A stretch of DNA of 64,000 bases from positions 23,870,001 through 23,934,000 of the forward strand of contig OY740819.1 in assembly GCA_963514005.1 (NCBI GenBank). The letters are read 5' to 3'. The position numbers and the translations under genes are program-made. This DNA comes from Raja brachyura. Its lineage: Eukaryota. Below the pieces are notes generated by a model. The model saw only the letters and a list, made by a program, of their open reading frames with translations. It did no database searches and was not told the DNA's origin. Shown here piece after piece: positions 27,431 through 61,492 of the stretch (its first letter is position 1; each line of letters opens with the position of its first letter).

Positions 27431-28518
27431 CAAAAGAGGAAAGATTTATTAGGAACCTGAGGGGTAACCCTTTTTACACAATGGTGGTGGGTTTATGGAA
27501 CGAGCTGCCCGTGGAGGTAGTTGAAGTAGGTGCGATAACAACATTTAAAAGACATTTTGACCTGTTCATAGATAGGAAAGGTTTAGAATGAAACGGGCCA
27601 AATGCGGGCAGGTGGGACTGGTGTACATGGAGCATGTTGGTCAGCATGGGCAATCTGGGCTGAAGGGCCTGTTTCTGTGCTGTGTGACTCTGTGTGACCC
27701 CCCCCCCCCATGTGTTGTGTTGTGAGCTGGGCCTGTCTTTACAGTGAACTGGTTAGAGTATGTCCATCATCAGTAAAAGCTTGTCTTTTGCACCCAAGCA
27801 GGGATAACATCTCTGTACGGAGTTTGTATGTTCTTTTATGGGTTTTCTCCAAGATCTTCAGTTTCCTCCCACACTCCAAAGACGTTCAGGTTTGTAGGTT
27901 AATTGCCTAGGTTTCAATGTAAATTGTCTCTAGTGTGTGTAGGATAGTGTTAATGTGCGGTGATCGCTGGTCCGTGCAGACTCGATAGGCAAAAGGGCCC
28001 GTTTCCACGCTGTATCTCACAACTAAAATAAATCTCCCTCACCCCTCCTTCTGGGTGAAGACTGAACCCCACTCACTAATCCCCAGTCCCCTCCAACGAC
28101 GGAACTGTTTGATTGCTGACACTGGTTTATGTTCCACAAAGTCACCTCCATTACTCGAATGGGTTACTGCTTCATTAATTAGAGTTACATTCAAAATAAT
28201 TCACCAATCTCAATTACCATAAGCAAACTTGGAAAACTGTGATAAGGCAGGGATCTAATGTTTAAATTACCCTGCCTGCAAATTGAAAATGTCAAATATA
28301 TATTTTCAATTATACCAACGTTTGCTTGGCCTTACTGTTTTACATAAACGTTGTAATTCCGATGGGGATGATGTTGGGAATCAGGAGAATAGGAGCAATG
28401 CAAGTTTCCCCCACGTTGTCCATGTTGAGACCAGACAACATGAGCCGAGATGCTGCTAACTTCATCGATGGCATCACACCAAAGCAAGAGGGATATAGGG
28501 CGAACACTGGCCGAATGG

Positions 28519-28661
28519 GGGATGTGGAAGATTGCAACCTTCACGTGGTCCGCCCCGTGTCGACAAATGCAATCAACTCGACGTGCACAAACGGAAGATC
28601 AAATAGAACAAGTTGTCCTACAAGTTTAGGCCGTGCACGCCACACGCAAGAAGAAGAAGAA
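28519..28661 (+). mobile_element. ~140-nt short retroposon with HDV-like ribozyme fold, copy 2
   Basis: TSD GGCCGAATGG (28509-28518, 28662-28671); GATTGCA ACC TTCACGT GGT CCGCCCC GT GTCGA CAAA TGCAATC; 3' hairpin; (GAA)n tail. Confidence 0.85.
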
Positions 28662-29489
28662 GGCCGAATGGAATGGAATAAATGTAAATTCTCCCTAGTG
28701 TGCGTAGGATAGTGTTAATAGGGATCGCTGGTCAGTGCGGACAAACGGGCCGAAGGGCCTGTTTCAGAGCTGCATCTCTAAACTAAATTAGTATACAGGG
28801 GGATCGTCAGCCGGTGTAGACTCGATGGGCCGAAGGGCCTGTTTCGGTGCTGTTTTTCCAAGCTGGAATTTAACACGTTATTGTCACATGTGACAAGGCT
28901 TAGTGAGATTCTTTGCTTGCATGACCTTTACAAGTAGCGGCCACATAACCGGCACTTTTATTCTTCACCCCCCCACAGCGGTCCCCCCACGCTGGGTCCT
29001 TCATTGTTCTTCCCCCCCTCACTCACGCCAGTACCCCGACACTCTCATCGAGCGTAAACCGCGGGGCGCCCCGCGAGGTCTCACTGCCGCCGACGCCCCA
29101 CTTCACGTGTCCATCTCATTCATCACTCAGCGCCATTGTTGGCCACCACACAGACCTCCCCACAATGCTGGGAAAATGGGACCGGTTTAGAGGGGCCAGC
29201 ATGGACAAGCTGGGCCGAAGGGCCTGTTTCCATGCTGCACGACCCTATAATTGTTATATCTTTCTATTTCGTGTTCCCTTATTCCTTCCCTCCACCTTTC
29301 TTTATGTGTTTACCATTTCTGCCTTTCTCTCTTTAAATAGTACACACAATTATTTATTAAGTATATAAAATGATAAGAGGCATAGATCGAATAAACAGTC
29401 AGAATCTTGTTTCCCCAAGGTGGAAATGTCCGGCACTACAGGACGTAGCTTTAAGGTGAGAGGGGGAAAGTTTAAAGGAGATGTGCGGG

Positions 29490-46779: not shown

Positions 46780-47109
46780 TGCTTCAGGGAAAACAAGTCA
46801 ACTCTTTCAAATGAGGTGAAGGGCGGTAAGACCTAGAACAAGGTCTGAAGGAATTTGTATGCATATATTATTCATTAGCCCAGCCATATTGAAAAGTTGC
46901 ATGCAGAGACATTTTTTTTTTAAATCGCTGTAGAAAGTGCAAACACCTTTCTGGGTTCCACTGCAATGCTATCTGCTATGGGAGTTGCATTTTACAATCG
47001 GCCGCATTTCGCCCAGCTGCACGCGGCGCGGACCCTTTACTAAATGACCATTAGAGACATTGCAATAAACACGGTTCAGCTTGATGAAGGAAGAGGATTT
47101 GTAGAGCGG

Positions 47110-47119
47110 TTTTACCTTA
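47110..47119 (-). other. Candidate splice donor ending a non-coding first exon (exon ends at 47116)
   Basis: Minus strand CTAAG|GTAAAA at the edge of the GC-rich block. No ATG-initiated ORF reads through it, so it is presumably 5' UTR. Confidence 0.35.
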
Positions 47120-47365
47120 GGATGGAACCGGGCGGCGGAATCAGGCGGCTACTTGTCCGTGTGTGTTGCGGGGAGGCGAGGGGGGGGGGAGGGGTGGTCG
47201 ATATTCGGTCCCCCTTGTGTGGCGGGTGTTAGGGAAAGCCACGGTCTTCGGGGGGGGGGGGGGGAGCGGTTGTTGAGGGGTTACAGGCAGCTTTGCATCA
47301 GGAAGAATACTCGGCGCTGCAACTCCGGTCAAATCTTATAGTACTCCCTCCACGCTGGCGATATT

Positions 47366-47497
47366 TTCAGCACCGCGGCCACTGGAGGTGGTTTCAGCAC
47401 CGCGAACAGCTCCCTCCTCGTCAACGATGGTTTCAGCCCCACAGTCAGCTCCTGACTCCCGTCCACTGGAGAATATTTCAGCACCGCGGTCAGCTCC
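47366..47497 (+). promoter_or_regulatory. Cluster of four RE1/NRSE (REST-binding) motifs
   Basis: 47366 TTCAGCACCGCGGCCACTGGA; 47393 TTCAGCACCGCGAACAGCTCC; 47432 TTCAGCCCCACAGTCAGCTCC; 47477 TTCAGCACCGCGGTCAGCTCC; consensus is TTCAGCACCACGGACAGCGCC. Confidence 0.8.
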
Positions 47498-48498
47498 CGA
47501 GTCCCGCTCCGCCCGCACTTGCAGAGGCTCCGGCCCCGGCTCCGGCCGGGCGACCCCTTGTCCTTGGCGGTGGCCGGCGCTAGAAGGAACGGACTCCCCG
47601 CGCCGCCCGCCCGCTCTCCAGGGGAAATCTCGGGCTCGGGAAGGTTGCAGTGAATGGGAGAGGAACCAGGGGCATCCTCGCCGCCTTGTGCGTGTGTGGA
47701 GCAGCCGAGTCTCAGCGCAGCCCCGTGTAAACTGAGCCCAGCTCCCTCACTGCCCCCTCCCTGGCACACTCCCTGGCGCTCCCGCTGTCCTTGCAGGGGC
47801 TGGGGGCGATACAGATGTGGCAGCCCACAGCTGCAGCAACACCTGCAACAGCAGCCTCCCTTCTTCGCTGATCGCCTCTTTAAATCCCGGCTACATCAGA
47901 GTCTCCGCATTCTCCGCACAAGTGCAGCGACCGAGTCCTGTCTCTGCCCGTCTCTCCCTCCCTCAGTCTGCCGAGTGCCCACACTCCATACTCCGGCCAT
48001 CCAGCGCGCAGGAACACGGATAGCTGGAGGGAGAAGCGGGCTGTGAGAATCAACCAGGCAACTCTCTGGAGGAGTGGCCGTGCGTCTCATGCATATAAAT
48101 GAGGACAGGCGCAGTTAGCACAGTTGTAGCAGAGCGGACTCGAGAGGCACAGGGAGGGTTGACAGAGATAGAGCAGAGGAGGGGGGGGGGGGGGGGGTGA
48201 CAGAGAGAGCGCGCAGAGGGAGGGTGAACAAGAAATAGGGGGGAGAGCAGTGTGGGAAGATGCACAAGGACAGATGGACAGGTAATGCACGAAGGGAGAA
48301 GATGTACAACAAATCATTTCATTTTTAGAACCAAATCACAATTAGATCTGGGCATCAAAGATATTTATTCTGAATCTAATCAGGTTCCTCTTCTGATGAT
48401 GGTTCCTCGTTAGCTTCCGATTAGTTCTGGGGTTCAGTGGGCAAAGTGGGGACTCCAAAGTGGTGCAGGTGATGCCAGGTAGGATACGCACAAGGCTA

Positions 48499-57041: not shown

Positions 57042-60000
57042 CATTTCGGAATCACGCGAGTGACTTTGTGAAGACCCTGCCAGGCACGCATGCGCGACAT
57101 ATCGTCGACCGCATGCGAGCGACGGGCAGTGAAGAGCGTTGCTCCTCTACTGCTGGGACCGGCAGGTAAGGAAAACACTAACCTGCCGTCCTTTTTTCAT
57201 TTCAGAGACTCTGTGTTCAGAGTGCTCCAGGCCGCTTCGGCACTGACTGCGGACCGCGGGATGCGGGCAGTCAGCGGCGGCTCTAATTGTATGGAGTCGG
57301 GAAGAGCCCGTCGACCCAGGTGGGTCCGGGTTCACACTCGCTGGCGGATGACGGCAGAGGCAGCCGACTCTACACCACAGACAGCGGGCTGGCGGCATGA
57401 ATAAGTGAGTGGGGTTGCAGGCTCGCCGTGTGCAGTGAGCGACGGCAGAGCAGCAGCCCGACTCTACACCGCAGCCCGCAAGGATACTGCGGGCTGACGG
57501 CATTAACAAAGGAGTGAGGGCTAGCCCCAACTCAACTCTACTCCACAGCCTGCAGTATCCCAGGCTGTATTAAACAGGGAATGGAGCTTGCAGGCAACAG
57601 CTGAGCGCTGAGGACTTTATTTATGCTGTTGCCCCGACTTTATTTTTACAACGGGGCAGCTCGTTGACCCGGTAAGGTCCGGGCTCACACTCGCCGTTCG
57701 CAGGCAGCGACGGCAGAGCGGCAGCACGAATCTACACCACGGGCTGACGGCAACGCTACCCGGAAGTTGGACAAGCCCGTGGACCAGGAGGGTCCGGGCT
57801 CGGAGAGTGCCATTCGCGGGCAGCGAAGGCAGAGCAGGAGCTCCAACTTGACGCCACAGGCCGCAGGTATACCGCAGACTAACGGCTATGCTACCCTATA
57901 GAGGTAGTAGACAGAACCAGGGGCCCGACTCACACATAGGCGGGAGCCTTGCCGTTAGTGGCCGTCTATGTCCCGCATGAGGCGCTGGTCACCATTGGAG
58001 CTAGGGGAAGAGAGTACGCTCCTCCACCGGAAGCTCATAAAGACCCTCAGGTAAGATACTAACCTTGAGTTGTTTAGCTTCTGTACTAGACTTTGCTTAC
58101 AGAAACAATGGATGGGAGACCAGAATGAAGGCATCGAAGTATGCTTCCAGGGCCATGCGACTTCGGATGCGAATACCACGCTTCGGCAGCCGGGACCGAC
58201 TCATCACAGCTTATGTCTTATCAGACTAGCTGGCCGCCTCCGTCCGGAGAATGACGGATTAGCGGCAGGTCCGCGCGGGAGTCGCTTAGCCATGCAGAAG
58301 CGGCAGGCAGCGACATCCTGTCTAGGCACCCTTGTTATCACCTCAACGAGGTGCAGGGCGATGACAGAAGCCTCGGAGATTCTCCAGAACCTGAGGAAGT
58401 CGACTTGTCGTCCGTAGATGCGGCAGCAGTCGCATGGCCTGGATGGAGCGCATGATGGAGCGTATCCTAGAGCACAATTTGCAGCTGGACCAGATGTTCT
58501 CCAGTCCTGGAGACATGAGGCTGGGCCACCCAGCATGTTCCCGTCATTGGTGAGGAAACTACGAATCAGCAGCTGGCTGGCTGACACGTAAGTAGGGTGG
58601 AGCAGGAACCTATAGTACCTAAGACAACCCAGGAGGAACTGCTGAATGTGGTCTCCAAGTTCGCCCAGCCGAAGCACAGGTCAGCCTGTTGCAGCCCAAT
58701 TATGGGGCTAGCGGACTACCTCACTACACACCAGCTGCAGGACCAGGTCCTTACCAAGGCGGTCAACAAATACAAGGCCCAAACAACTGCACATCGGTCA
58801 ATGATGCCCATCTACGACAACAACAGTCCCGGGATCGGGCACAGGAGCTGAGATTACATAGATCCTGAAATTGCTGACGTCGGGGATTACTGCCTTTGCC
58901 AGTTCGGTTAACGGTATGGAAATGACAGTAGAGCAGGAGGATGCGCTTGCGATATTAGTCATGAAGTTAACGCTTCCCGGTATATCGCCATTTAACCGAC
59001 TCCTAAACCCCATATTTGCGGGGTTGTACAAGGCATCTGCGACGCCACCACCGAGACAGCTGTTCGGTGAGGACCTGCCCATACAGGTCAAGGACCTGGA
59101 TTAGGAGACGGAGGCAGTCGGGTTGATAACCCACCTCCCTCCAGCAGGCCGGCAGTGCGCAGGCAAACATCATATGCAAGACCTCGGGGGCCACCTGAAA
59201 GACCAGTAAGGACCTACACATCAGCAGCACCTCAACACAATCCAATGGAACACCAGGAACCAGAATGTCAGGCCCACAGGTAATCATGGAGGTAAGGGGT
59301 CTGGTTCTCCAGAGAGTGCTGCATGTATAACCTCACAGGTAGGAGAGAGGTTACATACATTATGGGATACATGGGTCTGATTGTCACTATCCCAGGGAAC
59401 AAAGCAATAGAGAAGCATGTAATAGCCTTGCTTGCGCCAGGAAACCAACTATTAGACATGCTGTTAAGGTAATTGGTAAACATGTAGCTACATTCTAGCT
59501 ACATAATTGGGCCGTTACACTATCAAAGCTTGCAAAGAGAAAAATCTTGGCATTAATAGCGAATGCTGGACAATTTACGGGCCTATGCAGCCGCCAATCA
59601 AGGCATAAATTGAACTACAGTGGTGGATTAGCAATGTTTGTGATTGTTAAATCCCATCATTACATAAAACCCATTAGTCATGTTACAAACCGGCGCAAGC
59701 ACCAATGGCTGGGACTGTTCAGATATGCTGGGAGCATGTCACGGGCTGCGGGCTTAATGCACTAATCTGCAGCATACGCATGTCCATCTTCAAAATAATA
59801 CCACTGAGGTGGCATATTCAAACCTGATGGGTGGTATCAAGTCAATATCTTGTGATGAGTTGGAAAATAAATTTGGCTCTGGTGCATTGAAAGAAATATT
59901 TGGATATCAGCTATGTACCTTCTGGTTAGCTCAATACAGTGGCGGACACAGGTCACAAGTATCTAATAACGACACCAAGTGGATGTTGAACCTCCAAATA

Positions 60001-61492
60001 TTGCTAAAATTATAGCCTAATATGGAACACCAGATATCGACCTCCTTGCGTCCAGGTGAACCATTATATACTTATATGTGTCTCTTGAGAACCAGATCCT
60101 GCGGGACTGGCGATGGACGAGTTCTCGCTACATTGGGGGAAATGGATTTCTATGCTTTCCCCATTCTGCCTCATCAGACAGGTGTTGCACAAAACGTACC
60201 CAGATTCTGGAACATAAAGGACCATGGAGGTCATATAGCATCGTGCAGAGAAGTCCACTGGGAAGCAGTACCTCACCTACATAGGATATGGGAGGTTTCT
60301 GTAGTTGGACCAAGACCACCTACATATCTGCTACGATTTCCAATGTGCTGGCATCCTCACGGGTCTTTATTATGAGTCCCTCAGTTACAGTGCTGTGTAC
60401 AGTGCCAGGAGTGCACTGTCATCCTATGTCAACAAGTGATATCCTAACTATGAGGGATATGTTCTATCCATCCCTCCCCGACCACGATATTATAATAACC
60501 AAGAGATAAGGGTGGTGTTGACCCTACTCAGGAGCTGGTCGACTATGACGGATTTACCACTGGACTTACTCACCTTTAAAATGGTGATGGCAATAGCACT
60601 GAATACAGCACAACGGGTCCAGACTCTACAGGAATTAAACCCATAATAAAGTAACTTCTTCATGAAAGAGTTGTTTAAACTACACAGACCTGTGACTACA
60701 GGTCTAAAAATGGCCATCAGGAATATGGAGGTGGATCTGTTGTCAGCCATGGAAACCCACGTCACAGGGTGACGGTGCAGACTATCTCCAGATGGCTCAA
60801 GGTGGTATTCGGTGCAGCAGGTAAGACACTAAACATTTTAAATGTCATTCTACCAAGGCTTCCTCCACATCAGCGGAAGGACCATGGAGGTGTTCATGGA
60901 GCATGTCCTCGCAATAGCGGGCTGGGCCAGTGAAACTACATTTCAGCAGTTTCATAACTAACCTGTGGCCGTTTCCCGCAACGTTTGCGGAGTCAGTTTA
61001 AGTGCTGTCCCTAAACGTTTGTCCCCGAGTTCAGGGGTTTATTGTTGTATTAACAATAATGTTATTATTGTTCAGCTTGTTCAAGTCTGAAATATGTTAA
61101 CATACTTCCTCCATCAGTATTACAGCAGTGTGTGCGCGTGGACATGATCCAGGGCATGTAATCACAGAGCTTTGAAATCTTCACGAAGTCACTCACGTGA
61201 CTCCGAAATGAAATAGTAAGATTAAACGAGAACTTACCAGTTTGAAGTTTGATCTTTATTTTATGATGAGTTGCGATGAGGGATTTCGTACCCTCCACTC
61301 CCAACCCTCTACTATAAGGTCAACTGGTATATAGTCTCTTCAATCTTACTATAACAAGTCATTTCTGTTGTTGGTTCTGTGATTCCACACCATGCGTGCC
61401 TGACGGGGTCTTCACGAAATCCCTCATCGCAACTCCTCATAAAATAAAGATTAAACTTCAAACTGGTAAGTTCTCATTTAATCTTACTATTT
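57042..61492 (+). mobile_element. DIRS1-like tyrosine-recombinase retrotransposon, degenerate with RT largely deleted
   Basis: Short inverted termini (57066-57092 vs 61391-61417), internal complementary region 61178-61289, 'GTPDIDLLASR' and 'FYAFP' remnants (~60024-60165) and YR remnants. Confidence 0.88.
60505..60960 (+). pseudogene. DIRS tyrosine recombinase remnant
   Basis: 'LRSWS...LLTFKMVMAIALNTAQRVQTL', 'TISRWLK', 'HST', 'AGWASETTFQQFHN' are typical DIRS YR motifs; frame disrupted. Confidence 0.8.

Follow-up and report, generated by a model that had tools for sequence, protein, structure and literature searches.

A damaged copy of an abundant short retroposon with a predicted HDV-like ribozyme head and both ends of a Vingi-like LINE

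Introduction

A short element at 28519-28661 of the window (the whole 64-kb stretch of DNA analysed) raises the question whether it is a mobile unit in its own right, headed by a self-cutting RNA, or a fragment of a longer LINE. We consider it highly probable (about 0.85) that this element, here copy 2, is a damaged member of an abundant family of 135-140 bases derived from both ends of a 3.1-kb Vingi-like LINE. On this reading the head, predicted to form a self-cutting HDV-like ribozyme, likely determined the fixed start, and the LINE protein likely did the copying.

Two insertions from different subfamilies

Copy 2 and a second copy of the element in the window, copy 1, were delimited as follows:

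28509-28518, plus strand: 5' target-site duplication of copy 2, 10 bp, a repeat match (GGCCGAATGG)
28519-28661, plus strand: copy 2
28648-28661, plus strand: (AAG)n tail of copy 2, common to the LINE, read from the sequence
28662-28671, plus strand: 3' target-site duplication of copy 2, 10 bp, a repeat match (GGCCGAATGG)
18535-18673, minus strand: copy 1, of an older, more LINE-like subfamily, with P1.1 broken by a G37 to A change
18674-18685 and 18523-18534: 12-bp duplications of copy 1, different from those of copy 2; 18523-18534 overlaps the tail

An earlier note on this DNA had described the same element in opposite orientation with its own duplication, which proved correct: copy 1 (minus strand, 12 bp) and copy 2 (plus strand, 10 bp) were 88.6% identical over 140 columns (E 2.5e-46). 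No third copy of the short element was found by sequence comparison within the 64-kb window. As that note had it, P2 (GATTGCA/TGCAATC), P3 (ACC/GGT), L3 and CAAA were identical in the two copies, and copy 2 read CCGCCCC-GT where copy 1 read CTGCCCC-AT. Because CCGCCCC-GT and CAAA occur in the older, LINE-like subfamily to which copy 1 belongs, the proposed CpG decay holds relative to that subfamily and explains the differences of copy 1. Copy 2 has a young body with C36 and A45. Since the copies belong to different subfamilies, they came from different sources, and the derivation of one from the other was ruled out; independent insertion, a fixed unit length and mobility, all claimed earlier, were borne out.

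The reported damage to the 5' strand of P1 in copy 2 was also real: the strand reads GGGATGTGG, compared with GGGGTGG in the family, leaving two mismatches or a 2-nt bulge, and the fold of 28519-28574 is thus not intact. Copy 2 fails at P1 and copy 1 at P1.1, where the C24-G37 pair is lost. The two extra bases in P1 of copy 2 are sporadic. That its altered 5' end marks a mobile subfamily was considered and ruled out, the extended start giving 29 matches and the letters of copy 2 only 2. Copy 2 itself is ordinary and probably inactive; lying antisense to an LRFN gene, it is most likely a passenger that is dead or cuts slowly.

An abundant family with a fixed start

Exact matches to a 23-base tail motif and a 26-base head motif numbered 4,038 and 7,999, respectively, in the 2.7-Gb genome, and the reversed control gave 0 in both cases. 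The exact head motif was present in 27 of 76 tail-selected short copies, which scales to ~22,500 copies genome-wide, and 5 copies in 552,525 flank bases gave ~24,000, with a wide margin. The short family is therefore estimated at ~22,000-24,000 copies. The suggestion of a high-copy family was right, and the family is not limited to these two copies. The pair in the window is unremarkable: the mean density predicts 0.5 copies per 64 kb, so that two copies are, by this arithmetic estimate, a ~10% event.

Start positions were read at 90 sites drawn from the first 100 matches to the tail motif on contig C1. After 13 were dropped as duplicates of two loci, 77 independent copies remained, a sample selected by a 3' motif and thus biased towards copies with a young-type tail. 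The start was at G1 in 62 copies, at positions 2-4 in nine and at position 12 in one, while four copies were truncated and one was a LINE. The preferred 5' end that had been proposed is accordingly present, and the family does not consist of 3' LINE fragments with variable starts. Duplications of at least 7 bp (one mismatch allowed) flanked 67 of 71 full-length copies, whereas 20 shuffled pairings gave 6.65 on average. In 51 copies the duplication abutted the first aligned base, and 12-13 bp was the commonest length. Non-CpG change in the short copies was ~3%, with similar decay rates in head (2.6%) and body (3.4%).

Several loci had a more complex history. A single insertion was multiplied 13 times inside a large tandem or segmental repeat (L045-L057, G000:C1 14.57-14.95 Mb). 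Short elements were also inserted into further copies of their own family or of the LINE (L038/L039, L301, L150); two such nested inserts had entered the 3' end of another copy in antisense, their insertion sites nearly coinciding. At 14 kb to the right of the window, two copies, one per subfamily, were arranged head to head 270 bases apart (L396:3851-3987 and 4254-4386).

The parent LINE

The first reading of this DNA had not included a parent LINE. Locus L043 shared only the last ~30 bases and the tail with the short element, and its upstream sequence was the end of a Cys/His-rich ORF. Walking upstream led to a 3.1-kb element (L122:2671-5775) that begins with the head in sense orientation and finishes with the shared tail. 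Positions 11-74 of copy 2 were 90.6% identical to L122, and positions 100-141 were 83.3% identical. The short element is thus what an internal deletion leaves of a 3.1-kb single-ORF Vingi-like LINE: ~86 bases from its 5' end, then a linker of 18 bases, then its 3' end, in total 135-140 bases. Comparison with the LINE divided the part of copy 2 between the ribozyme head and the tail as follows:

28575-28599, plus strand: remaining sequence of LINE 5' UTR origin, which has diverged in the young subfamily
28600-28617, plus strand: linker at the deletion junction, present only in the short element
28618-28647, plus strand: LINE 3' end, comprising the last ORF codons and the 3' UTR

The LINE protein probably recognises the last of these segments. 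One older short copy (L158:20-154) still had LINE letters, and three other internal deletions of the LINE were found (L139, L144, L153). LINE copies were 85-92% identical to one another, and the short copies, at the ~3% non-CpG change given above, look younger.

The ORF of L122 is broken and contained APE (PF14529, 7e-9) and RT pieces; no intact LINE ORF was present among 134 scored candidates, in which the longest open frame was 507 aa. An intact relative (P0001), with APE and RT, had 1019 aa on a 3,344-base contig and 69% identity over 162 aa; its own relatives were mostly ~1000 aa long on contigs of 3.1-3.9 kb. RNase H gave no Pfam match at E 0.1 in P0001, P0002, P0004 or seven pieces of L122. 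A compact single-ORF APE-RT element without RNase H agrees with Vingi as characterised in the accessible text of PMC13708176, and the parent LINE fits this description. The placement was made by architecture rather than by a named reference: no named Vingi, Ingi or RTE sequence was among the matches, and we therefore use only the name "Vingi-like". RTE elements likewise are not known to have an RNase H. In a quick RT tree, all ribozyme-headed LINEs fell in one 75-row group (SH-aLRT 99), within which the LINEs with CPEB3-like heads formed one 8-row subgroup (100; two rows short).

Other features of the LINE copies were recorded. The 5' segment was inverted relative to the 3' segment in 13 of 29 distinct LINE loci, colinear in 13 and unclear in 3 (LINE copies with a 5' region at L130-L159, and L094, L102, L104, L117, L184, L229, L243, L253). 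The ribozyme head lay at the inner junction of the inverted loci, and the pattern recurred in sister families; we assume that 5' inversions at this high rate resemble the twin priming of L1. P0002, annotated from the eel Synaphobranchus kaupii, matched part of the parent LINE at 82% identity, which hints at horizontal transfer if the host is a cartilaginous fish. A 10-bp inverted repeat paired the LINE-derived 5' and 3' parts as a hairpin (28580-28641 and 18550-18613), strong in copy 1 (z -3.49) but not in copy 2 (z 0.46).

The predicted ribozyme head

The head of the element was assigned by descriptor, alignment and covariation, and in copy 2 it comprises:

28519-28574, plus strand: predicted P4-less HDV-like ribozyme head
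28519-28527, plus strand: P1 5' strand, with two extra bases
28530-28536/28568-28574, plus strand: P2 strands
28537-28539/28547-28549, plus strand: P3 strands
28540-28546, plus strand: L3
28550-28556, plus strand: P1 3' strand
28557-28558, plus strand: P1.1
28564, plus strand: presumed catalytic C

The 54-nt head of the family consists of a 7-bp P1, a 2-nt J1/2, a 7-bp P2, a 3-bp P3, a 7-nt L3 and a 2-bp P1.1, with a 5-nt link in place of P4 followed by C-x-A-A. The HDV-like fold proposed earlier is supported at the level of the family. An unguided alignment of 16 natural heads fell in register, with 92.1% of cells paired compared to 69.5% in shuffles and 39-49% when slid; the rows are related, so these statistics are not probabilities. 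P1, P2 and P3 covary across related elements: two-sided changes occurred in 13 of 19 pairs, including all 7 of P2. P1.1 showed no two-sided change in the 16 heads and was paired in 75% of cells, and two of five whole-structure measures failed to exceed the shuffle (47/500 and 227/500). A complete set of 19 pairs together with C44 was retained in 28 of 71 copies.

Family counts (n = 71) were 71 for T5, 66 for T36, 63 for T45 and 70 for C44. The ancestral P1 suggested earlier, GGGG(C/T)GG/CCGCCCC, has to be revised given the T5 (71/71) and T36 (66/71) counts, the mere 140 exact matches of the C36 form, and the LINE heads, which read CCACCCT; the ancestral P1 therefore ended in a G1-U36 wobble. 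The CAAA shared by both window copies is a minority state (the TAA form was found in 63/71), and copy 2 has a G-C pair instead of the G1 wobble while keeping the C of J4/2. The G1-U36 pair and the numbering are those given for the CPEB3 ribozyme in the available text of PMC8233481, and a C first in J4/2 is a feature described for minimal HDV-like ribozymes (PMC10879173, in part). Neither window copy had an Rfam ribozyme match at E up to 1, the Rfam scan of the window gave only microsatellite-driven miRNA matches below the cut-off, and the nested fold of copy 2 was no better than shuffles (z -0.04) by a method that does not model pseudoknots. From the covarying fold and the position of the starts, the head is predicted to cut itself 5' of G1.

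Likely host gene

A coding exon of LRFN (SALM), whose best PDB match was LRFN1 (E 4e-166), was located 38 kb to the left of the window, on the minus strand. Within the window, no convincing Pfam match to a coding exon was obtained from 300 repeat-filtered ORFs (150 of 158 on the minus and 150 of 171 on the plus strand) and 60 of 68 candidate exons. One further feature bears on the gene:

47100-48100, minus strand: GC-rich candidate promoter/first exon, presumably of LRFN

The GC-rich stretch near 47-48 kb contained three motifs in tandem within 47366-47493 (at 47366, 47393 and 47477), which we take to be RE1/NRSE-like, and is likely the LRFN promoter. If so, both copies would lie in the 5' intron, copy 1 in sense and copy 2 antisense. 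The earlier note had placed the copies in an intron of a minus-strand neuronal gene; the minus-strand gene is there, while the intron placement and the sense orientation of copy 1 depend on this candidate promoter. A sense copy in a neuronal intron would be no sign of function, because both copies hold fold-breaking changes.

Elsewhere in the window, 57150-60800 was a long non-repeat-masked stretch with broken ORFs, which look to us like a DIRS-type retrotransposon.

Proposed mechanism and alternative explanations

A source copy would be transcribed by read-through or from an internal promoter. Its head would then cut just 5' of G1 and release a unit-length RNA, by analogy with L1Tc/NARTc and R2 SIDEs. 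As in those systems, the LINE endonuclease/reverse transcriptase may bind the 3' end and the (AAG)n tail and insert the RNA by target-primed reverse transcription, leaving duplications of 7-16 bp. The shared ends suggest that the short element was mobilised in trans by the LINE protein.

It is unlikely, in our judgement, that the head is mainly an internal promoter, with the 5' end set by the transcription start and a P4-less fold that has ceased to cut. Such a dual nature has a precedent in L1Tc, where the same 77 nt are promoter and ribozyme (PMC3383444, in part), some well-folded SIDER heads of trypanosomes are inactive according to the available text of PMC4035085, and cutting by the heads described here is a prediction. 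Against this reading stand compensatory changes in P1, P2 and P3, the near-invariant C of J4/2, a start exactly at the G of P1, and a core that stayed paired while P4 was lost in at least two families. The position of both copies between the candidate promoter and the first LRFN coding exon, with copy 1 possibly in sense, could also suggest that one or both were co-opted to cut or tune LRFN pre-mRNA, as the CPEB3 ribozyme in mammals. This is very improbable: copy 1 has no C24-G37 pair in P1.1, copy 2 is antisense with a damaged P1, the local copy number is within chance, and head and body decay alike (2.6% and 3.4% non-CpG).

Least credible of all are the views that the window copies are ordinary 5'-truncated LINE 3' fragments or a tRNA-type SINE. 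The last ~30 bases and the tail are indeed those of the LINE 3' end, but the head is the LINE 5' end, located 3 kb away in the parent, and the starts are fixed, which refutes the 3'-fragment view; against a SINE, no tRNA gene was called and the head is LINE-derived. A ribozyme-headed unit copied by the LINE protein thus remains our preferred reading.

Comparison with known elements

Ribozyme-headed, internally deleted LINE derivatives are an already known kind, represented by NARTc, RIME and R2 SIDEs. According to the accessible parts of PMC3383444 and PMC4035085, NARTc (from L1Tc) and RIME (from ingi) of trypanosomes are short and non-coding, consist of the first stretch and last ~30 bases of a LINE as here, and likewise have an HDV-like ribozyme at +1 and 11-12-bp duplications. 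They differ in length, 263 nt compared to 138 here (about half), whereas the present element has a vertebrate host, a parent without RNase H and a predicted ribozyme without P4. R2 SIDEs also arose by an internal deletion that kept the ribozyme and the 3' end and move in trans, as is probable for the element here; they are rDNA-specific with a parent encoding a restriction-like endonuclease, whereas the present element is dispersed and has an APE parent (PMC6765202, in part). The Vingi clade, including the internal-deletion derivatives of Vingi-1_EE, gives rise to bipartite non-autonomous copies, as here (PMC5786205 and PMC13708176, in part). Minimal (P4-less) HDV-like and theta ribozymes similarly have no P4 and a catalytic C first in J4/2, but the available text places them in metagenomes and phages, beside tRNAs, whereas here the fold heads a vertebrate retroposon and a LINE (PMC10879173).

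In the available part of Kojima 2018, Vingi is listed among the clades that make bipartite elements and not among the ribozyme-bearing ones. A Vingi-type ribozyme was not found in the literature searched, partly accessible and exclusive of Repbase and Dfam, which does not establish its absence from print. Through this family, a Vingi-type LINE would join the clades that bear ribozymes. The family would also provide a natural role in a vertebrate for minimal P4-less HDV-like ribozymes; the origin and function of such ribozymes were called undetermined in 2024 (PMC10879173, in part). Vingi UTRs have been used for RNA-only gene insertion (PMC13708176, in part). With thousands of natural variants, one could ask across the genome whether copies that cleave are eliminated from intron sense strands. 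As a very weak proxy for orientation, one that uses no gene annotation, strand skew in the flanks of 87 copies gave p 0.25 for T/A and p 0.69 for G/C.

Sister families and the CPEB3 ribozyme

A search of the genome with RF00622 gave 41 matches among 59 scored candidates, 32 of them over the 35-bit cut-off (best 65.8 bits); the window copies had no RF00622 match. Inspected by eye, the 30 candidates fetched made up four sister families, of which three have P4 and the fourth is a P4-less short element. At least two different families lost P4 while keeping the core paired. Among 20 metagenomic relatives scanned, one (L174) had a 55.6-bit RF00622 head upstream of its ORF, and descriptors found 3 heads (L174, L184, L229) in 80 metagenomic loci, many of which have no 5' end. 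Of 18 metagenomic relatives for which upstream DNA was available, only one had a sense head.

The CPEB3 ribozyme (RF00622) has the same register, a 7-bp P1, a 7-bp P2, a 3-bp P3, a 7-nt L3 and G1-U36 (PMC8233481 and PMC10919898, in part). The short family differs from it in the sequences of P2 and P3 and has no P4, and the CPEB3 ribozyme is single-copy and conserved (PMC8233481 and PMC10919898, in part), whereas the elements here are mobile. Relatives of the CPEB3 ribozyme outside mammals had not been found as of 2021 according to the accessible text of PMC8233481, and a retrotransposon origin was not found in the literature searched, including the available parts of PMC8233481 and PMC10919898. 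The sister elements are non-mammalian relatives of this ribozyme and a possible clue to its origin, which thereby becomes testable. Tentatively, and with slightly less than even confidence, we propose that the ribozymes of Vingi-like LINEs span a range from near-copies of CPEB3 to the 54-nt P4-less form, that the CPEB3 ribozyme is a tamed 5' end of such an element, and that the 138-nt element is a working minimal RNA parasite of a vertebrate, made of a ribozyme and a protein-binding tail.

In one LINE family (L243, L245, L251, L253, L256) the head includes P4, and its RF00622 scores reached 60 bits. Another short element with a P4-less ribozyme head (L261, L263-L269), ~170-200 bases long, had its own tail and target duplications and a CPEB3-like P3.
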